From: Minisyncoccia bacterium
GTDB lineage: Bacteria; Patescibacteriota; Minisyncoccia; Phycocordibacterales; CAIZLB01
Direction of reading: 5' to 3'
DNA: 64,000 nucleotides
Assembly: GCA_041752275.1 (NCBI GenBank)
Contig: JBGSHK010000008.1
Location: forward strand, 2,641-66,640
Position numbers and translations under genes: made by a program. The notes beneath the pieces were generated by a model. The model was given only the letters and a program-made list of their open reading frames with translations. It was not told the DNA's origin and searched no databases. This document shows, in pieces, positions 33,806 to 63,032 of the stretch (position 1 is its first letter; every line of letters starts with the position of its first letter).

Positions 33806-34176
33806 TATCATCCTCCTAACTATAAGCCGAATTCTGTATCAAATTTTATCGAAACAAAATTTGACGACAATCATTTATCTGGGATGAAGATTGCTCTTCA
33901 CCTCGAGCGGCACTTACGTGTAAACACGCACACGGCCTTGCACACATGTAAGAGTTTAGCCGTTTCACCCTTATTGTTTTTACAACACTAACAATAAGAT
34001 TGACCTCGTGTAGGCCTGTATCAACTTTCGTTGACACACGTCACTGCTCGCATCTCTCTGTTGCCAGAGAAGGGAGTTACCCTTTACAATCCTGCATGGA
34101 TAAATCCACGCGTGTGTTCGGACTTTCCTCTGTGTTTTCTCTAAAGAAATACAGCGATTGTCTGTTTGGAGGATGT
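33806..34176 (-). ncRNA. rnpB: RNase P RNA (bacterial type A)
   Basis: The minus strand carries AGAGGAAAGTCCGAAC (P4 5' strand), GGCAACAGAGAG, AAGGGTGAAACGG, GCAAGGCC and ACAGAATTCGGCTTATAG (P4 3' strand) in the canonical order. The P1 stem CATCCTCC/GGAGGATG sets the ends; ~371 nt. Confidence 0.85.
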
Positions 34177-50952: not shown

Positions 50953-51387
50953 ATGGCTAATCAAATACAAAAAATACAAAGCACTTTTAAATACGCTATG
51001 GAAAATCGTCCCAAAATAGGAGGTTTTCCTTTTCTTGCAGAATGTATGAGGCAATCTGGTGTAAGTTACAATATATGGTCATTACCAAGTGCTCAGAGTA
51101 TATATGTTATGGATGAGGGAAGTGTTGTACAGCAAGGAAATCCTTTAGTGTCAGGTTTAGTTGATATTGCTGTATTTGATCAAGAGTCTCTTGTTAAAGC
51201 TATTAGAAAAGATCAAATAGGGGAAAGTACTTTCGATGAATTTTTAAAATCCTGCTGGGAGGCTGGGGTTGTGCGATATGTTGTAGATTTTGAAAAAAGA
51301 ATGGTTAGTTATTTTGGTGTTAATGAAGAAAGTTATGAAGAGGAATATGGTGGGGTGGAGATTGGAGTAGTTTCAAGCTTACAATAA
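50953..51387 (+). CDS. DUF1398-family protein
   Basis: GGFPFLAECMRQSGV.SY...DEGSVV...ESLVKAIRKDQ.GESTFDEFL...EAGVVRYVVDFEKRMVSYFG follows the DUF1398 (YbcV-like) pattern. Confidence 0.55.
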   Translation: MANQIQKIQSTFKYAMENRPKIGGFPFLAECMRQSGVSYNIWSLPSAQSIYVMDEGSVVQQGNPLVSGLVDIAVFDQESLVKAIRKDQIGESTFDEFLKSCWEAGVVRYVVDFEKRMVSYFGVNEESYEEEYGGVEIGVVSSLQ

Positions 51388-51395
51388 GGTAAAGA

Positions 51396-51428
51396 AAAAC
51401 CACCCTATGGAATAAGGTGATTTTGTTG
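51396..51428. terminator. bidirectional terminator T1 (CACCCTAYRGAATAAGGTG), copy 1 of 3
   Basis: aaaaccaccctatggaataaggtgatttt; near-identical hairpins at ~53693-53725 and ~54376-54405. Confidence 0.6.
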
Positions 51429-51435
51429 GATCTGT

Positions 51436-51466
51436 GCATGGGAGGATGTTCGAACCTTGTTGGTGC
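51436..51466. repeat. E element (catgggaggatgttcgaaccttgttg), copy 1
   Basis: Repeats at ~52676-52716 (near-identical) and ~54406-54440 (diverged: ggttgagggatgttagaacctatttg). Confidence 0.55.
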
Positions 51467-51631
51467 AAAAATAAACCGCCATACCTTTCGGACGGACGGT
51501 TTTTGCTTTAGCTGATGTTGCCAGCGCGGGATAGTTAGTCCACAGTATCAATGTCAACAGTACCTTCTTTGTCGTAAATACTGTCGGGAACTGTACATAT
51601 GTTCGTGACAGGTTTCTGCTCAACGATACTG

Positions 51632-52147
51632 TTAGGGACGGAGGGTAGTTTGTGCCACCACCCCCCATCCTTCTTGCGGAACTGAAGAGTACCCCCAAAA
51701 GGTGTCGTTCTGCTCGGTTGGAACTGCAGGAATGTACCAGCCGATCTGATTCGTCCTGCCACCTAGTGATGAGCGACACCCTTCGGAGTCGATGTCACTG
51801 ATATCTTTATTGCCAATCCTTGCAGCACATGGTGCACAAAGCAAGGATTGGTGGTCGAGAAACGTTTGGTACTCTCGCCAGAGTTTTACCCCACGTGCAC
51901 CACACAGACAGCATCTGTAGCTTGCAGGTGCGGTGATCATGGAATAATTTACCGGTTGTGAAGGATTGACTATAGGGTCATATGGAGATCCTTCTCCAAA
52001 CATTTCCCGAGCAAGTCGAAGGGCCTTGGCCGGACCCCTTTCTCCATTAAATGACATCGAAGGTTTTTTACCTCTCGAACGTTTCCATATTGCATGCCCT
52101 ATAACGAAAGGAGCACTACCGGGTAAAAAACGAAGGAACTTTTTCAT
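51632..52147 (-). CDS. hypothetical Cys-rich protein (island gene 1)
   Basis: 171-aa ORF with GC ~50%, preceded by the duplicated TTGACA...TTATCTTAA promoter/leader module. Its 3' part overlaps alternative-frame ORF 51535..51762, which ends next to the terminator, so the C-terminus is uncertain. Confidence 0.45.
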   Translation of the reverse strand: MKKFLRFLPGSAPFVIGHAIWKRSRGKKPSMSFNGERGPAKALRLAREMFGEGSPYDPIVNPSQPVNYSMITAPASYRCCLCGARGVKLWREYQTFLDHQSLLCAPCAARIGNKDISDIDSEGCRSSLGGRTNQIGWYIPAVPTEQNDTFWGYSSVPQEGWGVVAQTTLRP

Positions 52148-52159
52148 GATTTATTGTTT

Positions 52160-52222
52160 GTTGTTGGTTGTGAAAAGTAAAAGTGCTACCGTTAAGATAA
52201 CACTTTTTATATATTTGTCAAC
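52160..52222 (-). promoter_or_regulatory. promoter/leader module copy 1 (minus strand: TTGACAaatatataaaaagtgTTATCTTAAcGGTAGCACTTTTAC...)
   Basis: ~55 nt conserved with the copy at 52610-52670, including the -35 TTGACA and a -10-like TTATCTTAA/TTATCGTAA. Confidence 0.5.
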
Positions 52223-52223
52223 A

Positions 52224-52298
52224 ATACTCCTCGAGTTACCTTTTTACCGAACTAGGGGAGTGGTTTAGATTGTTGAAGAGGAATGGGTTTAGATTTAT
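52224..52298. repeat. R element (~70 nt) copy 1
   Basis: ctcctcgagttacctttttaccgaactaggggagtggtttagattgttgaagaggaatgggtttag; second copy at ~53727-53800 with ~8 substitutions. Confidence 0.6.
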
Positions 52299-52300
52299 AT

Positions 52301-52338
52301 AAAATGAAAATCCCGTCAGCTTTACCTGTGACGGGAGG
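52301..52338 (-). terminator. rho-independent terminator for the 80-aa gene
   Basis: Minus strand: cccgtcacaggtaaagctgacggg followed by attttcatttt. Confidence 0.6.
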
Positions 52339-52352
52339 GGTATTCAATGTTT

Positions 52353-52595
52353 CTATGATGAAATTTGTGGTTTTGATATTTCATCCCAAGATGCTTCGTA
52401 ATCAAAGGATATTGACACGTTAACCCCGTTAGAATTTAAGAATTTTCCCGTGATGTGTAGTTCAGGGTAGTCTCCTGATGCATTATCCTCAAGAATTTCA
52501 CTATCATTATTGGGGACATTTGATTTTCCTTCGGCAGTAAGAATAACGAATATCCTATGCCAGAGTTCCTTGTTTTTGTGTTCTTGAACTTTCAT
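52353..52595 (-). CDS. hypothetical small acidic protein (island gene 2)
   Basis: 80-aa ORF between terminator T3 and promoter/leader module copy 2. Confidence 0.45.
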   Translation of the reverse strand: MKVQEHKNKELWHRIFVILTAEGKSNVPNNDSEILEDNASGDYPELHITGKFLNSNGVNVSISFDYEASWDEISKPQISS

Positions 52596-52609
52596 ATTTT
52601 GTTGTTACA

Positions 52610-52670
52610 GTTGATTGCAGTCAGTAAAAAGTGCTACCTATTACGATAACACTTTTTACGTATTTGTCAA
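52610..52670 (-). promoter_or_regulatory. promoter/leader module copy 2
   Basis: Minus strand: TTGACAaatacgtaaaaagtgTTATCGTAAtaGGTAGCACTTTTTAC. Confidence 0.5.
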
Positions 52671-52721
52671 CACTTGCTCCGCGCATGGGAGGATGTTCGA
52701 ACCTTGTTGTGCAAATGAAAA

Positions 52722-52765
52722 CCACCCCTGGCACGAATGGTTCCGTGCAGGGGCGGTGGTTGGTA
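52722..52765 (-). terminator. rho-independent terminator for island gene 3
   Basis: Minus strand: ccccTGCACGGaaccattCGTGCCAgggg followed by tggtttt. Confidence 0.6.
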
Positions 52766-52788
52766 GCAAGAGTTTATCCAGTTATCAG

Positions 52789-53253
52789 CTAACCTCGAAG
52801 GTCGATCTGGTTATAGCCCTTCTTTCTCATCTCAACATAGATAGGGAGAAGCAGCATGAGTAGTCTGTGGTTTGCTTCATCTTTGCTTTCTGTCGTATCA
52901 AGGTACACTGTATTGATTGCCTCGGAGATCGTAGGCATTGGGATGCCCAACCTCTCAATCGTACCGTCAAGTATCTGATAGAACTCGGCACCTGTTTGTC
53001 CTAGGCGCAATTCTGAATTGAAATAGTGTTTCCTGTCTTCTTCGGATATTGTATCCCTGAAAACTTTATCCCATCCGCCATTTTCTCGCATTAGGGTGCG
53101 ATATGTACCCTCCGAGTTGCCCGTAGGAACAGGTACATCGCCCAAAGGGAAGTGCTGATGGAAATTGTTGATAATATTGTTGCGTGCGATGGACCACCCT
53201 TCGCTTGCGTCAATTTTTGATTCAGATTCATCGTATGGTTGTTCGTTTTGCAT
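52789..53253 (-). CDS. hypothetical protein (island gene 3)
   Basis: Start moved to the second ATG, which has a perfect AAAGGAGGT 5 nt upstream. No own promoter: the gene begins ~35 nt after the DUF1059 gene's terminator. Confidence 0.5.
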   Translation of the reverse strand: MQNEQPYDESESKIDASEGWSIARNNIINNFHQHFPLGDVPVPTGNSEGTYRTLMRENGGWDKVFRDTISEEDRKHYFNSELRLGQTGAEFYQILDGTIERLGIPMPTISEAINTVYLDTTESKDEANHRLLMLLLPIYVEMRKKGYNQIDLRG

Positions 53254-53293
53254 TTTACCTCCTTTCAAGGGCTGGTTAAGTTGATTGAAACTA

Positions 53294-53330
53294 AAAAGAA
53301 CACGACATATTTATATCACGTTCTTTTTAA
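53294..53330. terminator. bidirectional hairpin aaaaagaacacgacatatttatatcacgttcttttt
   Basis: 11-bp stem with a mismatch, flanked by A-run and T-run. Confidence 0.55.
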
Positions 53331-53392
53331 TTTGTCTAATTAGCTCCTTCTAGTACACGAGTTCAGAACTTTAAATTGGAGGAATATTCAAT

Positions 53393-53620
53393 CTAAACTT
53401 GTGAATTTTCAACTTCTTTAACCTCTTCTTCGGACACATCTTCTGGTGCCATTTCAAATCTAGCTTTATTGTCAGCCATCCATTTTTCCATATCTCCATT
53501 AGGGTCATTCATTACTTCAGGGTGTGCTTGCATGTAGTGAGGTTGAAGATTTGTCATCCATTCTTCAAAAGTATTACCTTGGGCAGTTACTTCACATAAA
53601 TCACATTTAAGAGTTTTCAT
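53393..53620 (-). CDS. DUF1059-family small protein (island gene 4)
   Basis: 75 aa; MKTLKCDLCEVTAQGNTFEEWMTNLQPHYMQAHPEVM pattern as in DUF1059. Confidence 0.5.
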   Translation of the reverse strand: MKTLKCDLCEVTAQGNTFEEWMTNLQPHYMQAHPEVMNDPNGDMEKWMADNKARFEMAPEDVSEEEVKEVENSQV

Positions 53621-53692
53621 AATATTTTTTTTATTTAAAATTTAATTAATAATTTATATTATAGCACAAGTTCTGAACACTGTTTGGGTAAC

Positions 53693-53800
53693 CAAAATCA
53701 CCCTACAGAATAAGGTGATTTTAATGGCTCCCGAGTTACCTTTTTACCGAACTGGGGGAGTGGTGTAGGTTGTTGAAGAGGAATGGGTTTAGGTTTGTAT
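53693..53800. repeat. T1 terminator copy 2 fused to R element copy 2
   Basis: aaaatcaccctacagaataaggtgatttt immediately followed by ggctcccgagttacctttttaccgaactgggggagtggtgtaggttgttgaagaggaatgggtttagg. Confidence 0.6.
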
Positions 53801-53873
53801 AAAAGAAAAAGAACCCAGCAACTTTAGAAAGTACATCTAGATTCATCTTTTTGGTTTATATACCGAGATTTGA

Positions 53874-54281
53874 TCAATGATCAGGATAGAACATTGGAAT
53901 TTGTCCCTCGAAGACCTCCTGGAGATAAAGGTTGAGGAGGATTCGTTGTGCACCTCTACCAAAATCATCTCCACTCGACAAGTGTCCAGGGTCTTTCAGA
54001 GATCCGATATTACGAATCCTATCAGAGATGTTTTTCCAGATTTGTTCCGTCTGTCCACCAGATTTTGTCCCCGTGATGGTGATCGAGCAAGAGCAAGATA
54101 CACCCTTGGAATCAGTTATCGATTCACTGGTATTAATGTTGACTCCGACGAGGTGTGGTTGGATCAGTGAATCAGGAGTACTGAACTCTTCAGCAATGAT
54201 TTGTTGCAATTCAGCACGAGCATCTTCGAGATGTGTGCGATTTCCGAACTCACTCGTATAAGCGATGTTTATGGTTGACAT
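53874..54281 (-). CDS. hypothetical protein (island gene 5); TGA stop
   Basis: 135-aa ORF with no recognisable family; GC ~47%. Confidence 0.45.
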   Translation of the reverse strand: MSTINIAYTSEFGNRTHLEDARAELQQIIAEEFSTPDSLIQPHLVGVNINTSESITDSKGVSCSCSITITGTKSGGQTEQIWKNISDRIRNIGSLKDPGHLSSGDDFGRGAQRILLNLYLQEVFEGQIPMFYPDH

Positions 54282-54375
54282 GGTGGTTGTTTTCTGTTGA
54301 ATGATTAACTTATGTATAATATAATATTAGTATTAAAAAGTCAAATATAATAAAGATATAATAGAAAAATAACCT

Positions 54376-54440
54376 TACAAAATAAGGCTACTTTTGATTT
54401 GCTCCGCGGGTTGAGGGATGTTAGAACCTATTTGATTAAT
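54376..54440. repeat. T1-like hairpin copy 3 plus diverged E element copy 3
   Basis: aaccttacaaaataaggctacttttgatttgctccgcgggttgagggatgttagaacc. Confidence 0.45.
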
Positions 54441-54528
54441 ACATAATGAAGGTATTTATACTTATAAATATTAATAAAGAAGATATAATAGCAAAAATAT
54501 CTAATGGGTGGTAAAATATCATCTAATA

Positions 54529-56958
54529 ATGGCAATTAAAAAATCACAACTATATAGTTCTATTTGGCAAGGGTGTGATGAGCTCCGAGGTGGAATGGAT
54601 GCCTCACAATATAAAGATTACGTACTTGTTCTTTTGTTTATACGTTATGTTTCAGATAAATACTCAGGTAAAGTAGATTCATTGGTTGAAATTCCAGCGG
54701 GTGGTAGTTTTGCAGATCTTGCCAGTTTGAAAGGAAAATCACATATTGGAGATGGTATCAATAAAGTTCTTGCAAAACTTGCTGAGGCTAATGGACTGCA
54801 AGGTGTTATTGATGCAGTTGATTTTAATGACGAAGAAAAGCTTGGTAAAGGTAAGGATATGCAAGATAGACTTTCAAACCTTATTGCTATTTTTGAAAAT
54901 CCTGATTTAGATTTTAGTAAAAACAAAGCTGAGGGCGACGATCTACTTGGCGATGCATATGAGTACCTTATGAAGCATTTTGCTGTTGAGTCTGGTAAAA
55001 GCAAAGGACAGTTTTATACTCCGGCAGAAGTTTCCCGAATTGTAGCTAAAGTTATTGAAGCAAATAAAGCTGACAGTGGTATGCATACAGTGTATGACCC
55101 TGCCTGTGGTAGTGGTTCATTGCTTTTGAAAGTCGCAGAGGAAGCAAAGAAAATTTCTATTTATGGACAAGAGCTTGATACTGCAACCGCAGGACTTGCA
55201 ACACTTAACATGTGGCTACATAACAAACCTGAAGCTGAAATAAGAAAAGGGCAAAGCACACTCTCCACACCGCTCTTTATAGAACATGGATCTCTCAAGA
55301 CGTTTGATTATGTTGTAGCTAATCCACCCTTTTCTTACAAATCATGGCGTAACGGTTTTGAACCAGAACACGATCAGTACGATCGTTTTGACGGTTTTGG
55401 TATTCCTCCAAAAAAGAAAGGAGACTTTGCCTTTCTTTTGCATATTTTGAAATCACTTAAAAGCACAGGGACAGGTGCAGTCATCCTTCCGCACGGTGTT
55501 TTATTCCGTGGAAATGTAGAAGCTGAAATTCGTAAGAACATTATTGAAAGAGGATATATCAAAGGAATAATTGGATTACCAGCAAACCTTTTCTACGGAA
55601 CAGGAATATCTGCCTGCATTATCGTGTTAGACAAAGCAACTGCCACTACACGCAAAGGCATCTTCATGGTAGATGCCTCAAAAGGATTTATTAAAGATGG
55701 AAATAAGAATCGTCTTCGTGAGCGGGATATTCGCAAGATTGTAGATACGTGGACAGACAAGCTGGAGACTTCAAGGTTTTCCCGCTTTGTTACAAATGAA
55801 GAAATTAAGAAGAATGATTATAACCTCAACCTTCCGAGATATATTGATGCTCAAGAAATAGAGGATATTCAAGATATCGAAGCACATCTTAAGGGTGGAA
55901 TTCCTGAAGCTGATATTGAAATCCTTTCTCCCTATTGGAAAATCTGTTCAACCCTGAAACATTCACTTTTTAAAGCCAATGGCCGTAAAGGTTATAGTGA
56001 GATAAAGATTGCACCCGATGAAGTTAAGAAGACGATTCTTGGTCATGCTGAATTTGAGACATTCAGAAAAGATGTGTTGTTACATTTTGCAAAATGGCAA
56101 ACTCCAATCACCTCATATTTGAAGGGTATTTCTGTTACAGATCATCCAAAAGCGATTATTGAAAAAATATCCGATAGTCTACTTGAAAAATTTGCTGATC
56201 TTACACTGATTGATAAATATGATATTTATCAACACCTTATGTCATATTGGGAAGAAATAATGCAGGATGATACACATATCGTAACAGTTGAAGGTTGGAA
56301 ATCGGGAAATGAAATAGTTCGATTGCAAAAAGAGAATAAAGGAAAGAAAAAAGATATTGATGGCCTTGTCGGTCTTGAAGGTAGACTTATTCCTACATCT
56401 CTTATCATTAAGACTTATTTTGAAAAGGAACAAAAAGTAATTTATGGATTGAATTCTGCGCTTGAACAGGTGGGTGTAGACATGGATACTCTCAAAGATG
56501 AACATGGTGGAGACGAAGGTCTGCTTTCTGAGGTGATTGATAATGACAAGATCAGCAAGGTAAGTGTTTTGAAAAGAATCAAAGAAATCAAGCATAGCAA
56601 TGATGATACTGATGAACTCGCGGTCCTAGAAAAATATACTGTCCTATTTGAAAAGGAATTTGATACTAAAAAAACAATCAAAGACGCCCTTATAGATATT
56701 GAAAAGAAGGTCCTTAAAAAGTACCCGACACTTTCTATCGATGAGGTAAAAACACTTGTCGTTGAAGATAAGTGGATGAATGAACTCTCTACTCGCATAC
56801 TCGGCGAAGTTGATAGATTGTCCCAGACTCTTGCTGGCCGTGTAAAAGAGCTTGCGGAGAGATATGTAAAACCAATGCCTAAGATTGTGGAAGAGGTTGA
56901 AGATTTAAAAAATAAAGTCGAAAGACATCTGAAAAAGATGGGATTTGATATTAAATAA
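54529..56958 (+). CDS. hsdM: type I restriction-modification system DNA methyltransferase subunit HsdM (long form with ~300-aa C-terminal extension)
   Basis: N6-adenine methyltransferase motifs (DPACGSGS motif I; VVANPPFS motif IV), HsdM N-terminal domain, coiled-coil-rich C-terminal extension. ATG at 54529 preferred over GTG at 54508. Confidence 0.85.
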   Translation: MAIKKSQLYSSIWQGCDELRGGMDASQYKDYVLVLLFIRYVSDKYSGKVDSLVEIPAGGSFADLASLKGKSHIGDGINKVLAKLAEANGLQGVIDAVDFNDEEKLGKGKDMQDRLSNLIAIFENPDLDFSKNKAEGDDLLGDAYEYLMKHFAVESGKSKGQFYTPAEVSRIVAKVIEANKADSGMHTVYDPACGSGSLLLKVAEEAKKISIYGQELDTATAGLATLNMWLHNKPEAEIRKGQSTLSTPLFIEHGSLKTFDYVVANPPFSYKSWRNGFEPEHDQYDRFDGFGIPPKKKGDFAFLLHILKSLKSTGTGAVILPHGVLFRGNVEAEIRKNIIERGYIKGIIGLPANLFYGTGISACIIVLDKATATTRKGIFMVDASKGFIKDGNKNRLRERDIRKIVDTWTDKLETSRFSRFVTNEEIKKNDYNLNLPRYIDAQEIEDIQDIEAHLKGGIPEADIEILSPYWKICSTLKHSLFKANGRKGYSEIKIAPDEVKKTILGHAEFETFRKDVLLHFAKWQTPITSYLKGISVTDHPKAIIEKISDSLLEKFADLTLIDKYDIYQHLMSYWEEIMQDDTHIVTVEGWKSGNEIVRLQKENKGKKKDIDGLVGLEGRLIPTSLIIKTYFEKEQKVIYGLNSALEQVGVDMDTLKDEHGGDEGLLSEVIDNDKISKVSVLKRIKEIKHSNDDTDELAVLEKYTVLFEKEFDTKKTIKDALIDIEKKVLKKYPTLSIDEVKTLVVEDKWMNELSTRILGEVDRLSQTLAGRVKELAERYVKPMPKIVEEVEDLKNKVERHLKKMGFDIK

Positions 56959-56963
56959 ACTTT

Positions 56964-58151
56964 ATGACAAGTGTAATCAAAACAATTCCAAAGGGATACA
57001 AACAAACTGAAATCGGGGTTGTTCCTACTGATTGGGATGTCCAACCAATAAGTTATATTGCAAAGGTTACAACAGGGTCTAAAAACACTCAGGACAAAAT
57101 CGATACTGGCCTCTACCCATTCTTTGTGCGATCCCAAGTAGTTGAGAGGATAAATAGTTATTCTTATAACGGTGAAGCTATTCTAACTGCTGGAGACGGT
57201 GTTGGTACCGGTAAGGTTTTTCATTACATAAATGGTAAGTTTGATATCCATCAGAGAGTTTACAAAATCAGTGACTTCTCTAGTGATATAAATGGATATT
57301 ATTTCTACTTGTATTTTAGTAATAATTTCTATAAAAGAATTATGCAGATGACCGCAAAATCATCTGTCGATTCAGTTCGAATGGAAATGATTGCTGACAT
57401 GCAAATCCCTTTACCTAGTAAGACTGAACAGGTATCCATTACTAAAGCGCTCTCCGATATCAGTACTCTAATCCAAAAGACAGAAAGTCTGATTGAAAAG
57501 AAGAGGGTTATTAAACAAGGTGCAATGCAGGAATTACTTACGGGAAAAAGAAGACTGTCTGGTTTTAGTGGTGATTGGGATTATAAAAGACTTGGTGATA
57601 TCACAGACATGTCGTCGGGTGGAACACCGTTATCAAGTAATCCGGTTTATTATGGTGGGTGGATACCTTGGGTTGTAATTGCTGATATGACCAGAATAAC
57701 TAAATATCTTTTTGATACAGAAAAAAAGATCACAAACAAAGGACTTGAAAATAGTTCAGCAAAATTATTTCCTGCAGGAACACTGCTTTTTGCTATGTAT
57801 GCATCAATAGGAAAGTGTTCAATTACTAAAGTTGATGTAAGTTGTAATCAAGCTATTTTAGGAATCAATACAAAAAAGATTGATATAGAATTTTTATATT
57901 ATTATTTGTCATTTAATGAGCAGAAGTTTTTGCAAATGGGTCAATCAGGAACACAAAATAATCTGAACAAAGAAATAGTTGAGAATTTCTCGATACCCTA
58001 TCCTCAAATACCGGAGCAAACCGCCATTGCTACCATCCTCTCCGATATGGATACCGAAATAGAAAAGCTTGAATCGGAAATGATAAAATGGAAAGATATA
58101 AAGCAAGGGATGGTGCAAACATTATTAACAGGTAAAATAAGATTAATCTAA
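56964..58151 (+). CDS. hsdS: type I RM specificity subunit HsdS
   Basis: Two target-recognition domains separated by and ending in conserved helical spacers (LLTGKRRL ... LLTGKIRL). Confidence 0.85.
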   Translation: MTSVIKTIPKGYKQTEIGVVPTDWDVQPISYIAKVTTGSKNTQDKIDTGLYPFFVRSQVVERINSYSYNGEAILTAGDGVGTGKVFHYINGKFDIHQRVYKISDFSSDINGYYFYLYFSNNFYKRIMQMTAKSSVDSVRMEMIADMQIPLPSKTEQVSITKALSDISTLIQKTESLIEKKRVIKQGAMQELLTGKRRLSGFSGDWDYKRLGDITDMSSGGTPLSSNPVYYGGWIPWVVIADMTRITKYLFDTEKKITNKGLENSSAKLFPAGTLLFAMYASIGKCSITKVDVSCNQAILGINTKKIDIEFLYYYLSFNEQKFLQMGQSGTQNNLNKEIVENFSIPYPQIPEQTAIATILSDMDTEIEKLESEMIKWKDIKQGMVQTLLTGKIRLI

Positions 58152-58155
58152 TAAT

Positions 58156-61100
58156 ATGAATACAACACAAACAACAATTGTAGGACAAATCGAAAGAAAA
58201 ACACAGAACCGTGTTGTTTCTCTTTTTCGTGATAGTTTAGGTTATGATTATTTTGGTAATTGGGAAGATCGTGAAGAAAATAGCAATATTGAGGAAGAAT
58301 ACTTGCGACCATTTCTTATGCGATCAGGTCATGGTGATATACTTATAGATAAAGCCATCGAAACTCTAAAAAAGTCTACGAATCGTCCACAACTATCACT
58401 GTATGAACTCAACAAAGAAACATATGGTCTTCTTAGATATGGAATTAAGGTTCGTGAAGGATTGGGGGAAAGTTATCAGACAATTTGGCCTATAGATTGG
58501 AAGAATCCAGAAAAGAATCATTTTGCGATTGCGGAAGAGGTAACTATCAAAGGGAATAAGACAAAGCGTCCTGACATTGTTTTATATGTGAATGGTATTG
58601 CAGTTGGTGTGATTGAACTCAAGAGAAGTACTGTCTCTGTATCAGAGGGTATTAGACAGAATATAGGAAATCAAAAAGAAGATTTTATAAAAACATTCTT
58701 TGGAACGATCCAATTGATAATGGCTGGTAATGATACAGAAGGATTAAGATATGGTACAACGGAAACCCCAGAGGTTCATTATCTCTCATGGAAAGAGGTG
58801 GGGGTTGGTAGTGAATCTAGACTTGATAAAACAATACTTCAGATATGTGATAAGAATAGAATATTAGAGATTATTCATAATTTTATTGTATTTGATAGTG
58901 GAATTAAGAAGACCTGTAGACATAATCAATATTTTGGTATTAAATCAGCACAGGATTATCTAAACCGACATGAAGGTGGAATAGTTTGGCACACTCAAGG
59001 TTCTGGAAAATCTTTGACTATGGTGTGGCTAGCAAAATGGATCCGAGAAAATATCTCTGATGCACGTGTTCTTCTTCTTACTGACCGCACAGAGCTTGAT
59101 CAACAGATTAAGCAAGTATTTAATGGTGTTGATGAAGAAATATGGCGAGCACCAAATGCTAAAGATCTGCTTTCTGAATTAAATAAAAAGGATAAGTGGC
59201 TTCTGTGTTCACTAGTCCACAAATTCGGAAGAAGAAATGCAAATGGTGAGATGGAAGTTGATGTTGATTCTTTGCGAAGTAATTTACCAACTGATTTCTC
59301 AGCAAAAGGAAATATATATGTATTTGTTGATGAATGTCATCGATCACACACAGGTAAACTCCACGAGGCAATGAAGGAGTTATTGCCAAACGCTACTTTT
59401 ATTGGCTTTACAGGCACACCGCTTCTAAAGATTGATAAATCGAATAGTGTTGGCTCATTTGGTCCTTATATCCATACATACAAATACAATGAGGCTGTCG
59501 CTGATAAAGTTGTATTGGATTTAAGGTATGAAGCTCGTAGAGTTGATCAAGATATATCTTCTCAAGATAAGATCGATGAATGGTTTGAAGAACGTACACA
59601 AGGACTTACTGATGTAGCAAAAGCAGAATTGAAAAAACGTTGGGGTACAATGCAGAGTTTGTTATCTTCAAAGTCACGTTTAGAAAAAGTAGTATTTGAT
59701 ATTCTTGATGATTTCTATAAAAAGGATCGTCTTGCGAGTGGTCGGGGTAATGCCATGCTGGTTGCAAGTAGTATTTCTGAAGCTTGTATGTATTATGAGA
59801 TATTTCAGTTACAAGGTTTTACTAAATGTGCCGTTGTAACCTCATATGAACCAGGTGCTCTTTCAAGTGATACTCGTGAATATGCTATATATCAAAGAAT
59901 GTTAGGAGGTAAAGATACCGAGACTTTTGAAAAAGAAGTAAAAAAGAAATTCATTGATACACCAGGACAAATGCAACTTCTAATTGTGGTGGACAAACTA
60001 CTCACCGGCTTTGACGCTCCGCCTGCTACATATCTTTATATCGATAGAAATATGCAGGATCATGGATTGTTCCAAGCAATTTGTCGTGTAAATCGATTGG
60101 ATGGTGATGATAAGGAATACGGATATATTGTTGATTACCGCGACCTCTTTAAGAAGCTTGAAAAAGCCGTGAGTGACTATACTTCAGATGCACTGGATGG
60201 ATTTGATAAGGAAGATGTTGTAGGCCTTTTGAAGGATAGAATGGATGAAGGTAAGAAAGATTTAGATGAAGCCTTAGAGGTGGTTCGAGCATTGTGCGAG
60301 CCTGTAGCTCCTCCAAAAGATTCTATAAAATACATTAACTATTTTTGTGGTGATGTTGAAAATCCCTACTCTCTTAAAGAAAATGAGGTAAAAAGAGTTA
60401 AGTTATATAAGTCTGTAAGTCATCTCATAAGATCTTATGCTGATATTGCGAATGATATGAAGGATGCTGGATACAATAAAGATCAAGCAAAAGCTATCGA
60501 AAAAGACGTGAAGCATTATGAACAGGTACGTACAGAAGTAAAGCTTGCAAGTGGTGATTATATCGACCTCAAAAAATATGAATCTGCCATGCGCGTTCTT
60601 ATTGATAGATATATATCAGCCACTGAAAGTCAGAAGCTGTCAGCCTTCAATGATATGACATTGGTGGATTTGATTGTTAAAAAAGGTGAGGATGCTTTGA
60701 ATAATTTACCTGACACTATTAAGCAAAGTCATGAAGCTGTTGCTGAAACAATTGAGAACAATGTACGTAAACTTATTATTGATGAGATGCCAACAAATCC
60801 TAAGTATTACTTACGTATGTCTGAGCTTTTAAATGAATTGGTAAAAAAACGTAAGCAAGCAGATGTTGAATACAGGGAGTACTTGAAACAGATTATTGAG
60901 CTATCTAAAAAGGTTAAAGATCCTATGGACGAATCTGTAGGTGTAGAAATTAACACATCTGCAAAACGAGCTATCTACGATAATCTCGGACAAGATGTAC
61001 AAAAAGCTGTTATGGTACACGAAGCTGTTATGGGTTCAAGGCAGGCAGATTGGCGAGGTAATAAACTTAAAGAGAGGGCAATTAAAATTGAAATTAGAAA

Positions 61101-61173
61101 AGTGTTACCGGATATCATCGATGAAGATATGAAAACTTTAATTGAAATTATTAAAAATCAACATGAGTATTAA
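58156..61173 (+). CDS. hsdR: type I RM restriction endonuclease/helicase subunit HsdR
   Basis: N-terminal PD-(D/E)xK region (DIVLYVNGIAVGVIELK), SF2 helicase motifs (TQGSGKS; DECHRSHTG), 1005 aa. Confidence 0.88.
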   Translation: MNTTQTTIVGQIERKTQNRVVSLFRDSLGYDYFGNWEDREENSNIEEEYLRPFLMRSGHGDILIDKAIETLKKSTNRPQLSLYELNKETYGLLRYGIKVREGLGESYQTIWPIDWKNPEKNHFAIAEEVTIKGNKTKRPDIVLYVNGIAVGVIELKRSTVSVSEGIRQNIGNQKEDFIKTFFGTIQLIMAGNDTEGLRYGTTETPEVHYLSWKEVGVGSESRLDKTILQICDKNRILEIIHNFIVFDSGIKKTCRHNQYFGIKSAQDYLNRHEGGIVWHTQGSGKSLTMVWLAKWIRENISDARVLLLTDRTELDQQIKQVFNGVDEEIWRAPNAKDLLSELNKKDKWLLCSLVHKFGRRNANGEMEVDVDSLRSNLPTDFSAKGNIYVFVDECHRSHTGKLHEAMKELLPNATFIGFTGTPLLKIDKSNSVGSFGPYIHTYKYNEAVADKVVLDLRYEARRVDQDISSQDKIDEWFEERTQGLTDVAKAELKKRWGTMQSLLSSKSRLEKVVFDILDDFYKKDRLASGRGNAMLVASSISEACMYYEIFQLQGFTKCAVVTSYEPGALSSDTREYAIYQRMLGGKDTETFEKEVKKKFIDTPGQMQLLIVVDKLLTGFDAPPATYLYIDRNMQDHGLFQAICRVNRLDGDDKEYGYIVDYRDLFKKLEKAVSDYTSDALDGFDKEDVVGLLKDRMDEGKKDLDEALEVVRALCEPVAPPKDSIKYINYFCGDVENPYSLKENEVKRVKLYKSVSHLIRSYADIANDMKDAGYNKDQAKAIEKDVKHYEQVRTEVKLASGDYIDLKKYESAMRVLIDRYISATESQKLSAFNDMTLVDLIVKKGEDALNNLPDTIKQSHEAVAETIENNVRKLIIDEMPTNPKYYLRMSELLNELVKKRKQADVEYREYLKQIIELSKKVKDPMDESVGVEINTSAKRAIYDNLGQDVQKAVMVHEAVMGSRQADWRGNKLKERAIKIEIRKVLPDIIDEDMKTLIEIIKNQHEY

Positions 61174-61885
61174 TTCATATTTGCAACTTGGTCCAATCGA
61201 GGCATTAATTGTTCGTAAACCGGTCAAGAACTTACATCTTTCGATATTACCACCAAATGGATGGGTACGTGTTACTGCCCCACAAAATATGAATGATGAT
61301 GCCATAAGAACACTTCTGGCACTTAGACTTCCGTGGATAAAAAAACAACAAGCAAAATTTAGTGGACAGCAAAGACAAACCAAACGAGATTATGTCTCAG
61401 GAGAGAGTCATTATTTTCTTGGTAAAAGATATAAGCTTGAAGTTATATACAAAGATGAGCCATCCAATATAACAATAAAAGGGAAAAATAAAATTATTTT
61501 ACAAGTTAAACCAAAAACTAGTGTAAAAAAGAAACAAGAAATTATTACTGATTGGTATCGAGAAGAACTACATATTGTTTTAAATGAGCTTGTTGATAAA
61601 TGGCAAAAAAAGATTGGGGTTGAGGCTTCTTCTTGGAGTATTAAACAAATGAAAACTCGTTGGGGTACTTGTAATCATGAAACAGCAAAGGTACTTTTTA
61701 ATCTAGAGTTATCAAAAAAACCAATTAGTTGTATTGAATATGTGGTAGTCCATGAATTAGTTCATTTAATTGAAAGAAAGCATACTGAAAGGTTTGTTGC
61801 TTTGGTGGCCAAGCATCTTCCTAAATGGAAAAGCCTGAAGGATGAACTTAATAGTTTTATACTTTCTTATGACGAATGGAAATAA
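61163..61885 (+). CDS. DUF45/YgjP-like M48-related zinc metallohydrolase
   Basis: C-terminal HELVHLIERKH (HExxH) in a ~240-aa protein directly after hsdR, as seen in many type I RM loci. Confidence 0.7.
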   Translation: MSINSYLQLGPIEALIVRKPVKNLHLSILPPNGWVRVTAPQNMNDDAIRTLLALRLPWIKKQQAKFSGQQRQTKRDYVSGESHYFLGKRYKLEVIYKDEPSNITIKGKNKIILQVKPKTSVKKKQEIITDWYREELHIVLNELVDKWQKKIGVEASSWSIKQMKTRWGTCNHETAKVLFNLELSKKPISCIEYVVVHELVHLIERKHTERFVALVAKHLPKWKSLKDELNSFILSYDEWK

Positions 61886-62058
61886 AAAACTAGCCAAATC
61901 TTCAAGTACAGTACCAGAGATAAGTATAAGTAATTAAATAACAGAAGACATAGGTCTTAGGAATTTTGATAATGAGGTTTTAATTAATTCTGTTACATTC
62001 TTTTGTATATATTTGAAAATTGATGCTATTCAGTTAAAAAAGATATATAATAGTTTTT

Positions 62059-62814
62059 ATGGTAAATTCTAAAAAGAAAACTATTTCTGTAAAAAATACT
62101 AAACTAGTGTGGGGTGAAAGCGCGGGCTATTGTGCAAAATGTAAAAATAGGGTTATAGAAAAAATTGCAAAAGGAACACTTGAACCAGTTGGTCAATTGG
62201 CACATATTGAAGGTGAAATGCCGGGGTCTAAAAGATATAATCCTAATCAATCTGATAATGAGAGAAATGGACATGATAATTTAATTTTATTATGCCCAAA
62301 TGATCATGATTTGATCGATAGAGATGATGTTACGTACACTGTTGAAGTTCTACATAAAATGAAAAAAGATCATTTGAGGTTTGTTTTCAATTGTATTAAA
62401 TCAGAACTTCCAAATATCACCTTTGCTGAACTAGAAGTGGTTGTTAATTATTTAGTGTCTTCGGATAATAATTTTACTCCTGATCACTCTTTAGATCACA
62501 TTACACCTCAACAAAAAATAGATAAAAATAAACTAACAAATGATAATGCTATTTTAATAACAATGGGAATGACAAGGGTAAAACATGTTAAAGAATACCT
62601 AAACAATAATCCTGATGTTAATTTTTCAGAAAGGTTGAGAACAAAATTGTCTGAGTATTATACTCAAGCAAAAATTGAAGAATCTGACACAAATATTTTA
62701 TTTGAAAATATGATAGAATATGTATCTGGAAACTCTGTTGATATTAAAAAGAAAGCTGCTGCAATTGCTGTTATGACTTATTTTTTTGAAACTTGTGATA
62801 TATTTGAAAAATGA
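62059..62814 (+). CDS. HNH-nuclease-domain protein with a ~130-aa C-terminal helical domain
   Basis: N-terminal CxxC...AHIEG...N(x)HDNLILLCPNDHDLID HNH motif; C-terminal domain unassigned. Confidence 0.6.
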   Translation: MVNSKKKTISVKNTKLVWGESAGYCAKCKNRVIEKIAKGTLEPVGQLAHIEGEMPGSKRYNPNQSDNERNGHDNLILLCPNDHDLIDRDDVTYTVEVLHKMKKDHLRFVFNCIKSELPNITFAELEVVVNYLVSSDNNFTPDHSLDHITPQQKIDKNKLTNDNAILITMGMTRVKHVKEYLNNNPDVNFSERLRTKLSEYYTQAKIEESDTNILFENMIEYVSGNSVDIKKKAAAIAVMTYFFETCDIFEK

Positions 62815-63032
62815 TTCTACCTAATAAAAACATAATACTATCTAATTCACTATTAGGTCTCGGCCAGATTGTTTTAGGTATCTTAAATAATAAAGAAACG
62901 GTATCTTCTTTGTGGTTAAAAACTCGTGGAGAAAAAATTAATACTTTTGGAAAATTTATTTTAGTTTTAGATTTTTTATACACATTGAAATTAGTAAAGA
63001 TCACTGATAATCTTATAAGTAAGACAAATGAT

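Follow-up and report, generated by a model that had tools for sequence, protein, structure and literature searches.

What is the stretch of about 3 kb at positions 51,395-54,436 of this Parcubacteria (candidate phyla radiation) chromosome, in which five small minus-strand gene units are separated by a handful of recurring modules? In the window, by which we mean the whole 64-kb stretch of DNA analysed, every one of the five ORFs has a promoter-like site ahead of it, and a terminator hairpin comes after most of them. The first-pass annotation had described this locus as a possibly shufflable cassette array of unrelated, high-GC small genes with common modules. All five minus-strand ORFs were found to be present (171, 80, 154, 75 and 135 aa, here g1 to g5), while the elevated GC content applies to three of them: g1 (49%), g3 (45%) and g5 (44%) differ from the host level of 29-32% (left flank 29%, entire window 32%), whereas g2 and g4 lie at 36%. 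The T1, E, R and P repeats are located where they had first been placed. Their copies are 76-100% identical inside one genome and confined to the array, with 0 copies in the remaining 61 kb of the window and a chance expectation of 0 matches per module based on dinucleotide shuffles of the window. Adjoining the array is a type I R-M system. The features are listed here in the reading direction of the genes.

54397-54436, minus strand: E', first (array-proximal) E-type site, diverged, ATCAAATAGGTTCTAACATCCCTCAACCCGCGGAGCAAAT (nhmmer 33.8 bits, E=4.9e-9)
54365-54395, no strand assigned: T1' hairpin, terminator-like, diverged, right after E' (hairpin fold/sequence)
54316-54344, minus strand: putative g5 promoter TTGACT-17-TATTAT in an AT-rich stretch (consensus match only, 10/12)
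53874-54281, minus strand: g5, 135 aa, cargo of cassette 5 (homologue search)
53732-53810, minus strand: R copy 2, closing the g5 cassette on its 3' side (91% identity with copy 1 over 79 nt)
53692-53722, no strand assigned: T1 hairpin copy 2, start of the g4 cassette (repeat comparison)
53393-53620, minus strand: g4, 75 aa, GC 36%, small, Cys/His-rich (ORF list)
53340-53372, minus strand: E'', degenerate E-type site at the g4/g3 junction, AAAGTTCTGAACTCGTGTACTAGAAGGAGCTAA (read from sequence)
53291-53328, minus strand: H module, -10 of the g3 promoter enclosed by the palindrome AAAAAGAACGTGA..TCGTGTTCTTTTT (inverted repeat)
52789-53253, minus strand: g3, 154 aa from ATG, GC 45%, AAGGAGG upstream (ORF list)
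52713-52759, minus strand: g3 terminator hairpin (sequence)
52672-52709, minus strand: E copy at the g3/g2 junction, CAACAAGGTTCGAACATCCTCCCATGCGCGGAGCAAGT (nhmmer 34.2 bits)
52626-52670, minus strand: P promoter copy 2, predicted to drive g2, TTGACA-16-TG-TATCGT (repeat and consensus scan)
52353-52595, minus strand: g2, 80 aa, GC 36% (ORF list)
52301-52335, minus strand: g2 terminator hairpin, a stock part, CCCGTCACAGGTAAAGCTGACGGG-TTTTCATTTT (sequence)
52232-52310, minus strand: R copy 1, E-type site at the g2/g1 junction (repeat comparison)
52179-52221, minus strand: P promoter copy 1, predicted to drive g1, TTGACA-16-TG-TATCTT (repeat and consensus scan)
51632-52147, minus strand: g1, 171-aa ORF; 51535-52147 with frameshift repair (ORF list, family alignment)
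51467-51504, minus strand: g1 terminator hairpin (sequence)
51428-51464, minus strand: last E copy (nhmmer 26.7 bits)
51395-51424, no strand assigned: T1 hairpin copy 1, after the last E (terminator scan)

Rather than modules combined in varied orders as equals, as originally proposed, each junction consists of one E-type site (E, E', E'' or the allele R), followed by a stock part, namely a T1 hairpin with an AT-rich promoter, P, or the H operator-promoter. Once the degenerate E'' between g4 and g3 is counted, there is a bounding site for every gene. E-type sites are about 40 bp long and combine a conserved left half (CAAAWAGGTTCKAACATCCTC) with a lineage-specific right half, here CCATGCGCGGAGCA. 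A 26-nt core (51437-51462) is 100% identical between the last E copy and the copy at 52672-52709; the last copy has a perfect left half and a right half without GGAGCA (..CCCATGCAC followed by AGATCC). E' is 69% identical to the reference E copy. E'' scores under the nhmmer threshold, and the same variant form (AAAGTTCTGAACCTATCCACTAGGCGGAGCAG) also marks a cassette junction in another contig (L034, 3907-3940). R is built from about 45 nt of extra sequence and an E-like skeleton, GTTC-N18-GGAG, and follows g5 in the window at the place taken by E in L034 and L038; R represents an alternative E-site allele.

The stock parts are not tied to particular genes. P, whose two copies have a 32-nt core of 91% identity (76% with the leader), stands ahead of the unrelated genes g1, g2, geneX of L033 and two genes of L034, and in copy 2 a palindrome (AAAAAGTGTTA..TAGCACTTTTT) spans -10 to +10. 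The H module, predicted to be operator-like, recurs in L010 and L034, in both after E. Hairpins homologous to T1' come after E in L033, L034 and L038. T1 copy 2 precedes a promoter region containing GTTCAGAAC, and its counterpart by homology is the T1-plus-promoter module found in L038 and L025, while T1 copy 1 is also the terminator of a convergent DUF1398 gene and its homology to the L038 module extends about 27 nt into the 3' end of that gene (BLAST, L038 631-723 vs window 51459-51368). The g2 terminator is also located behind unrelated genes (geneX, L033 7289-7320; a 206-aa gene, L034 4691-4724). The terminator-like hairpin of g5 is weaker, and none is evident downstream of g4. The initial observation of common modules around unrelated genes therefore extends to other genes in L033, L034, L038 and L010.

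Conservation of E reaches far beyond this genome, whereas the remaining modules are lineage-specific. Its left half is also found in Patescibacteria contigs from MAGs labelled Paceibacterota and Saccharibacteria and from freshwater metagenomes, and both large scans for the E pattern gave matches in Patescibacteria-type contigs. Using an nhmmer model, 30 E sites were identified at E<=0.01 in nine non-redundant arrays with 2-6 copies each. None of the nine showed mixed orientation (p=2^-21, about 5e-7), and E polarity is unchanged where cargo genes use the opposite strand (L012, L020, L022, L023). The 21-nt left half is nearly invariant among contigs of 35-51% GC and differently labelled classes although the flanks are unrelated, which requires a sequence-specific reader and not homology alone. 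The right half shows no consistent dyad between lineages and no covariation or compensatory changes were detected for CTCC/GGAG pairing in E, so that classical core-site symmetry is not established.

Cassettes differ between related contigs, the exact window strain being represented by one assembly only. L025 corresponds to L031 plus a 1.66-kb two-gene insertion between two E copies, and L019 and L031 are identical through GGAGCA and unrelated beyond. L033 and L038 have both flanks and the g5 cassette in common and differ in the first cassette, while L022 and L023 have a TrmB cassette in common with different cassettes ahead of it. All breakpoints that could be mapped fall in an 18-40 nt stretch. 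Reading along L025, the resident left half is joined first to the cassette's right half, and at the other end the cassette's left half to the resident right half, an arrangement that places the crossover inside TTCGAACATCCTCCCACC. Further, the g5 cassette and its junction modules recur at 79-88% nucleotide identity in L033, L034/L035 and L038, and the cassette occupies three different chromosomal contexts. Shuffling, as first suggested, is thus seen as whole-cassette differences located exactly at E.

We therefore consider the locus to be probably an array of cassettes that site-specific recombination at E mobilises, with the enzyme encoded elsewhere. A cassette comprises a stock promoter, a single small ORF whose GC content is often foreign, mostly a hairpin terminator, and an E-type site. 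Cassettes would be gained, lost and exchanged via crossover within E, where its conserved left half meets the variable right half, most likely by an enzyme supplied from elsewhere in the genome or by a helper element. Two direct E copies would recombine to release a circle with one E, and insertion of the circle at whichever E is resident would restore the array with its orientation unchanged. As a first guess, the recombinase might be a tyrosine integrase of the tRNA T-loop class. The promoters would be active and presumably repressed through the palindromes.

Among the cargo, g1 is extended to 203 aa when a single G is dropped in the G6 run (51665-51670), which brings back the C-terminal WW..LP motif of its family. 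The protein is a zinc-ribbon-like member of this conserved, uncharacterised group, whose 205 homologues have invariant columns of Cys, Trp and Tyr and are frequent in phage-like gene clusters (L004-L009, L037). An AF2 model of g1 was confident (pLDDT 86), and a fold search with it gave no match. The g5 family is tiny (6 clusters, 77-100% identity); the protein is conserved at 77-88% identity in four other assemblies and starts with MSTINI here vs MPTINI in the homologues. Searches for families or homologues of g2 and g3 found none, nor were homologues detected for g4, whose proposed DUF1059 identity is sub-threshold (E=0.11, 13.2 bits vs a cut-off of 21.1). The earlier statement that no protein but the DUF1059 candidate has a clear family does not hold for g1. 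Comparison of all five proteins with PADLOC, PHROGs, NCBIfam and Pfam gave no matches above threshold; together with the g1 fold search, this lends no direct support to the suggested defence, anti-defence or toxin role. Arrays elsewhere carry GNAT, Fic/DOC, NYN, CYTH, HicAB, Phd/ParE and many unknowns, and HicAB, Phd/ParE, Fic, NYN and GNAT there, the phage-like contexts of g1 homologues and the R-M neighbour are no more than circumstantial evidence for such a role. The similarity of these cargo types to chromosomal integron cassettes was counted in favour of mobile cassettes.

Homologous recombination or gene conversion between the short conserved intergenic blocks (E, R, P, T1 and terminators), for example after natural transformation and akin to the linker-mediated mosaicism of phage genomes, would dispense with dedicated machinery. 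We regard it as rather unlikely. In its favour, a search of the 10 kb to the left and to the right, of 10 further ORFs of the window and, by eye, of the flanks of other E arrays revealed no recombinase gene, and module identities of 76-100% per genome are expected from gene conversion. Promoter and terminator modules inside cassettes are also common to different genes (geneX of L033 vs g2), hence exchange occurs inside cassettes as well; a pure unit of gene plus site is insufficient and additional homologous exchange is indicated. What speaks against homology alone is the near-invariance of the E left half amid unrelated flanks, the strict polarity in 9/9 arrays whatever the cargo strand, and a breakpoint stretch that is short for RecA-dependent exchange.

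It is improbable that E acts as a regulatory element in cis or at the RNA level, for instance as the operator of a conserved DNA-binding protein or as a signal for tRNA-like processing, and that the arrays represent the genes of one regulon. In the window, L010, L027 and L034, a TTGACA -35 does follow E at a distance of 4-6 nt, a partial inverted E core (GTTCGAACC; GTTCAGAAC in the window) is located between -35 and -10 of T1-type promoters (L025, L038 and window g4), and the left half is similar to a tRNA T-arm. However, many E copies precede a terminator and not a promoter, E orientation is independent of that of neighbouring genes, the hairpin shows no compensatory changes and Rfam gave no match. 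Synteny breakpoints and insertions exactly at E would also be left unexplained.

Very unlikely is a classical integron array without integrase (CALIN), with E and R as attC sites. Same-orientation repeats between mostly single small ORFs, upstream stop codons that in some cases fall inside the repeat, an AAC motif after pyrimidines (GTTCTAAC) and TA pairs, GNAT proteins and unknowns as typical chromosomal integron cargo would fit. Against this, no RYYYAAC...GTTRRRY pair (>=6/7 complementarity, 50-150 nt apart) was present in the window array, L012, L017 or L034, the site of about 40 nt has weak, inconsistent single-strand folds and no significant downstream inverted partner, cassettes have their own promoters, and no intI was found. 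Repeat-rich junk, with REP- or MITE-like modules and ORFs that are not genes, is largely refuted and deserves hardly any credence: the lack of detected homologues for g2, g3 and g4 and the g1 frameshift are outweighed by modules absent from the other 61 kb, the g1 family with its invariant columns and confident fold, g5 conservation, and the promoter-like sites and, for most, terminator hairpins of the ORFs.

Among known systems, the earlier exclusions of CRISPR, classical integrons, DGRs and retrons hold. CRISPR was rejected as the identity of the locus, as were REP elements, since the modules occur nowhere else in the 64 kb, and a classical integron, given no attC boxes, no nearby integrase and cassettes with their own promoters. 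The pdif modules of Acinetobacter plasmids are Xer-dependent and carry small cargo including TA pairs, with the recombinase encoded elsewhere; their sites are plasmid-borne 28-bp XerC-spacer-XerD dyads in alternating orientation. E cassettes likewise place small cargo between short, presumed recombination sites with the enzyme probably encoded elsewhere, but all E copies are direct, chromosomal and without a consistent dyad, and Xer/pdif was rejected.

Tandem accretion of integrase-less elements at tRNA-type att sites is known from tycheposon islands (bioRxiv 10.1101/2020.12.28.424599), cis-mobilizable elements, CIMEs (review PMC5704250), and the ssrA islands of Dehalococcoides (PMC3146451). 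As in these, direct repeats of about 40 nt that look like a T-arm plus acceptor end flank the units, no integrase is found in the units so that one would be needed in trans, and for L012 and L023 a tRNA gene with matching orientation lies 0.6-1 kb upstream of the array start. The similarity to a tRNA end is, however, marginal. In contrast to those elements, E units measure just 0.4-2.4 kb and usually hold one gene, neither an integrase nor a replication module was observed, and E is no exact tRNA fragment, with a universal 2-nt 'T-loop' insertion and extra bases ahead of the acceptor-like end. The window array and L033, L034 and L038 are away from tRNA genes; none was found at these arrays or within the 64-kb window.

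Phage morons are similarly autonomous promoter-ORF-terminator units with GC content unlike their surroundings, and g1 homologues occur in phage-like clusters, but E cassettes form chromosomal arrays with a conserved polar bounding site and no prophage context. Integron attC sites are 57-141 bp long and structure-conserved with R''/L''/L'/R' boxes, whereas E, of about 40 bp, is sequence-conserved in its left half; neither IntI, attI nor Pc was found, and every E cassette comes with a promoter, in many cases bearing an operator-like palindrome, and mostly with a hairpin terminator as well. Like integron arrays and CALINs, E arrays consist of short, mostly single-ORF cassettes that vary between related genomes, with a polar repeat that is similar within species and in which ORFs sometimes end, and with cargo rich in TA pairs, acetyltransferases and unknowns. 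Without any of the integron hallmarks, the array nevertheless behaves like an integron.

The first-pass annotation had described five small minus-strand ORFs among repeated modules, and both observations were confirmed. All five ORFs (g1 to g5) are present, as are the repeats of T1 (a hairpin), E (a ~40-bp junction repeat), R (a 79-nt module) and P (a promoter module), for each of which dinucleotide shuffles gave 0 expected matches. No copies of T1, E, R or P were found in the 64-kb window outside 51.4-54.4 kb. Read in gene orientation, the array is arranged as follows, E' and E'' denoting diverged copies of E and H an operator-like promoter module:

Cassette 5, minus strand: E' (54436-54397), T1' hairpin, AT-rich promoter, g5 (135 aa)
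Cassette 4, minus strand: R, T1, promoter, g4 (75 aa)
Cassette 3, minus strand: E'' (53372-53340), H operator-promoter, g3 (154 aa), terminator
Cassette 2, minus strand: E, P promoter, g2 (80 aa), terminator
Cassette 1, minus strand: R, P promoter, g1 (171 aa), terminator
Distal array end: E, T1, followed by the convergent DUF1398 gene

Based on this unit-by-unit order, every junction consists of one E-type site and, after it, one of a few stock modules. Sites that agree with the sigma-70 consensus at 10/12 positions lie upstream of g1, g2 and g5. Palindromes span the -10 region in both P (AAAAAGTGTTA..TAGCACTTTTT) and H (AAAAGAACGTG..CACGTTCTTTT) and look like operators. Promoter modules of the array are also present in other arrays. 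When sought in related genomes, the modules were found flanking other genes, with P and the g2 terminator around unrelated genes in contigs L033 and L034 and H in L010 and L034. These regulatory modules thus form a common kit, in agreement with the original proposal that unrelated small genes share regulatory modules. Homology to the T1-plus-promoter module of L038 (631-723; window 51368-51424) runs ~27 nt beyond the T1 hairpin and takes in the stop codon and final codons of the DUF1398 gene (50953-51387), which is convergent to the array. The distal end of the array therefore overlaps the 3' end of that gene. Further, T1-type promoter modules in L025, L038 and the window carry a partial inverted or variant E core between -35 and -10, namely AGTTCGAACCTATG in L025 (gene orientation, ~220-245) and L038 (~700-725) and GTGTTCAGAACTTGTG in the window (53650-53672). 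One DNA-binding protein might read both E and T1-type promoters.

To determine the distribution of E, a degenerate 21-mer was scanned against one genome per species and JGI metagenomes. Three genome matches, all single copies in high-GC DNA (L011, L015 and L016), look like chance, with about four chance matches expected in the one-genome-per-species scan by our own estimate. Most of the remaining matches are low-GC contigs, several of them labelled Paceibacterota, Patescibacteria or Saccharibacteria. The E consensus reads CAAAWAGGTTCKAACATCCTC followed by a lineage-specific part, which is C-N7-GGAGCA in the lineage of the window as well as in several further ones. Searching with an nhmmer model of 28 copies identified 30 E sites in nine non-redundant arrays, none of which showed mixed orientation (p = 2^-21). 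These arrays included:

Six E sites: L012
Four E sites each: L017 and L034
Three E sites each: L020, L022, L038 and the window

Orientation was constant even where the intervening genes lie on the opposite strand; accordingly, E does not belong to any particular gene as its promoter or 3'-UTR element. Successive E copies are 0.09-2.4 kb apart, with ORFs, promoters and terminators in between. The E and R patterns had no match in the viral contigs scanned, E plus P had no BLAST match in plasmid and phage collections, and the R prefix was absent from the metagenome contigs scanned. By these comparisons, R appears specific to the window's lineage, being found elsewhere only in L033.

Several variants of E arrays were additionally observed. 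The N7 part can carry a 25-50-nt hairpin insertion, e.g. CCCAGCCTCTCGCGAGAGGCTGGG (L013/L024 and the first E copy of L025), which is either a tolerated variable loop or a site inactivation by a small inserted palindrome. In L022, L023 and L030, a stock module of that lineage, TTTTTTGATACCYAAT-N8-GTTAGAACTTTT-GAAAAGAAAGAC, is located ~55-100 nt past each E and is probably a promoter. It contains GTTAGAAC, the exact reverse complement of the lineage's E core GTTCTAAC, and is the sole case resembling an attC-style R''/R' pair. Contig L017 (CAZWYZ010000002.1; 40% GC), which carries a 4-5-copy E array, probably comes from Patescibacteria and was mis-binned into a MAG with the label 'uncultured Pseudomonadales'.

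Comparison of related contigs showed whole-cassette differences at E, which supports and sharpens the initial cassette-array reading. Three freshwater metagenome contigs (L019, L025 and L031) have an upstream gene and E in common. L019 and L031 are unrelated directly past GGAGCA. L025 corresponds to L031 with 1.66 kb inserted, which comprises two genes and has an E copy at either end. One of these copies combines the resident left half with a variant right half and the other the cassette's own left half with the resident right half, which places the exchange point within TTCGAACATCCTCCCACC. Similarly, L013 and L014 have a HAD-hydrolase gene and E in common and diverge afterwards, and L022 and L023 have a TrmB cassette in common that is preceded by a Fic cassette in one and HicAB in the other. 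The window's own cassettes likewise appear to move, as judged from sequence comparison. The g5 family comprises six clusters only, and copies of the g5 cassette with its junction modules, 79-88% identical in nucleotide sequence, occupy three distinct settings:

Window: hsdM on one side, the DUF1398 gene on the other
L033 and L038: flanked by a Bro-N-like gene and an FAD oxidase
L034/L035: first of six cassettes, between a CsoR-DUF305-copper ATPase cluster and AbiEii

L033 and L038 have the g5 cassette and the flanks on either side in common, while the other cassette differs. Around g5, L033 carries R-type sites and L038 E-type sites, which makes R an allele of the E site; the GTTC-N18-GGAG skeleton is retained in the last 30 nt of R.

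The host is a Parcubacteria-type member of Patescibacteria, its FtsZ sharing 92% identity with proteins that carry the name 'Candidatus Parcubacteria bacterium'. The window also contains the dcw cluster, MreB and RNase P RNA. To the left, the array is flanked by DUF1398, GNAT and cupin genes. The right-flank genes and the RNase P RNA are located as follows:

33807-34173, minus strand: class A bacterial RNase P RNA (106 bits)
54529-56958: hsdM, type I restriction-modification system
56964-58151: hsdS, type I restriction-modification system
58156-61173: hsdR, type I restriction-modification system
61142-61885: YgjP-like metallopeptidase
62059-62814: protein with ABC-3C C-terminal domain, CTD10

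The right-flank block (54529-63000) has a GC content of 36% compared with 29-32% for the core, so it was probably acquired as well.

A raised GC content had been assigned to all five array genes. This holds for g1, g3 and g5 (49, 45 and 44%) but not for g2 and g4 (36% each; left flank 29%, window 32%). The five proteins had further been described as lacking a clear family, DUF1059 excepted, and as possibly connected to defence or toxicity. Searches of Pfam, NCBIfam, PHROGs and PADLOC indeed returned nothing above threshold for g1 to g5, and a defence or toxin role could be assigned to none of them. The DUF1059 label given to g4 needs correction, its match being sub-threshold (E=0.11), and g1 does belong to a family. 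Its homologues number 205, and many of them come from MAGs assigned to Kaiserbacteria, Yonathbacteria, Saccharimonadales and Dojkabacteria by label. Homologues of g1 often lie within phage-like gene clusters. In L004-L009 and L037, g1-family genes are found in runs of small same-strand genes in phage-like early regions of genomes with 43-67% GC, next to genes for PD-(D/E)XK, DnaA_C, DNA methylase, ribonucleotide reductase and NUDIX proteins. The high GC content of g1 in the window fits this setting. No E sites were present in the g1-homologue contexts L003-L009, L036 and L037. A confident structure model of g1 (pLDDT 86) shows a domain that contains a zinc ribbon and had no significant match in PDB or BFVD. 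The gene is frameshifted at a G6 run (51665-51670, minus strand). When one G is removed, the ORF reaches 51535 (203 aa) and regains the family's C-terminal GxxWWxxLP motif, which is nearly invariant; this also accounts for the 127-nt gap ahead of the terminator. The G6 run is identical in the Logan assembly of the same sequencing run, so that the frameshift either is genuine (a pseudogene or slippage site) or reflects a read artefact common to both assemblies.

The homologues of g5 (P0131-P0134 and P0121) all begin with MPTINI, the window copy carrying Ser in place of Pro (MSTINI), and the predicted secondary structure opens with a beta-alpha-beta pattern. Tautomerase superfamily proteins start with beta-alpha-beta and use Pro1 as the catalytic residue. 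Based on the homologues' N-terminal Pro and this pattern, our guess is that g5 is tautomerase-like; its structure model is poor (pLDDT 54). Cargo of E arrays in general includes GNAT acetyltransferase, histidine phosphatase, CYTH, NYN, Fic/DOC, HicAB and Phd/ParE proteins as well as many without family.

Two sequence features provide leads on mechanism. Following the near-palindrome GGTTCGAAC, E carries CATCCTC|C, which we take to resemble a relaxase/HUH nick region. Further, save for a universal 2-nt insertion, the E left half has the sequence of an Asn/Val-type T-arm, GTAGGTTCGAATCCTAC. The L012 and L023 arrays start 0.6-1 kb downstream of tRNA-Asn and tRNA-His, respectively, in the same orientation. 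Of the tRNAs compared, the one heading the array gave the highest score with the E right half in both cases (Asn for L012, His for L023), the likeness being to the tRNA 3' end and the margin a statistically marginal 1-2 points. This likeness would point to tRNA T-loop-class integrases and to tandem accretion of integrase-less units, as described for tycheposon islands and CIMEs (bioRxiv 10.1101/2020.12.28.424599; PMC5704250). In tycheposon/CIME-type elements, flanking direct repeats copy the 3' portion of a gene for tRNA or tmRNA, and a tyrosine or serine integrase is encoded either within the array, by one element or more, or at another place in the genome. No partial tRNA was found by Infernal, and no tRNA or tmRNA genes are present in the 64-kb window or beside the L033 and L034 arrays. 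Because the arrays of the window, L033, L034 and L038 are not at tRNA genes, the tRNA-att model is a lead. Among the window ORFs scanned for domains, those within 10 kb either side of the array and 10 further ones, none carried an integrase domain, and no integrase was seen in the related contigs as far as these were read (at most 18 kb of any one, against 64 kb of this genome).

A classical integron was among the readings considered. The attC sites of integrons and CALINs are 57-141-bp imperfect inverted repeats with complementary R'' (RYYYAAC) and R' (GTTRRRY) boxes, while E is ~40 nt long. A regex scan found 0 such box pairs in the window array, L012, L017 and L034, single-strand DNA folds of E are weak (-3 to -13 kcal/mol) and inconsistent, and no inverted partner is enriched downstream of E. 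IntI, attI and Pc lie beside integron arrays (though this is not required of CALINs), whereas no integrase was found among the window ORFs scanned, and integron cassettes are promoterless as a rule whereas the window cassettes have their own promoters, as judged by consensus matches. On these grounds we rejected the integron, and likewise CRISPR, whose short identical repeats have regular 25-50-nt non-coding spacers compared with an E spacing of 0.09-2.4 kb occupied by ORFs, promoters and terminators. Both outcomes are in line with the first-pass annotation.

Phage morons have the same promoter-ORF-terminator grammar as the array but are inserted among prophage genes, whereas the array flanks are chromosomal. 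Xer/pdif modules have 28-bp sites of two 11-bp arms and a 6-bp spacer in alternating orientation. In E, a dyad (ATCCTCC-N7-GGAGCAA) is limited to the GGAGCA lineage, the L017 and L018 types lacking it, and all E copies are direct, so this reading was rejected. REP, BIME or MITE elements, the genome-wide repeats considered at the outset, occur as many dispersed palindromic copies; this was rejected since the modules are confined to the array within the 64-kb window and E is weakly palindromic and without covariation. A structured RNA was rejected because Rfam yielded nothing at E, R, P or T1 at gathering and permissive thresholds (the region and 13 related loci gave only RNase P and ordinary tRNAs) and the CTCC/GGAG hairpin of E shows no compensatory changes. 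The idea that T1·E and P·R represent attB/attP, with P·E and T1·R as hybrids, was dropped because L034 and L038 show T1, P and H to be alternative parts downstream of one common site. Logan contig L001 (exactly 51417-54453) was not taken as evidence for a population variant, since the assembly it comes from has contigs of ~3 kb throughout, with overlaps of 28 and 10 nt, not k-1.

In conclusion, the array consists of repeat-bounded mobile cassettes, and arrays of this type are found repeatedly in Patescibacteria. More tentatively, and with considerable doubt, Patescibacteria may possess their own widespread, integron-independent system for cassette capture, in which an array-unlinked recombinase (housekeeping, helper-element, or a HUH-type nickase at CATCCTC|C) would act on a ~40-bp tRNA-T-arm-like site to stack single-gene units built from a small interchangeable kit of promoter/operator and terminator parts. 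If true, this would give these tiny genomes (~1 Mb) a compact and standardised way of sampling accessory genes. To our knowledge, little is known about accessory-gene gain and loss in Patescibacteria, and in the searchable literature we came across neither integrons nor comparable cassette systems described for this group. The conserved polar E, which marks cassette insertions and replacements in several lineages, is a searchable signature of a flexible gene pool. Reuse of promoter/operator and terminator parts around unrelated ORFs is unusual, and the shared parts can serve directly as a catalogue of candidate expression signals and repressor sites in organisms with which genetic work is difficult. 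The window array and related arrays are integron-like in function, with like-oriented repeats between short cassettes whose set differs from genome to genome, and different in build; E arrays would represent a second, apparently independent, solution to the problem solved by integrons.
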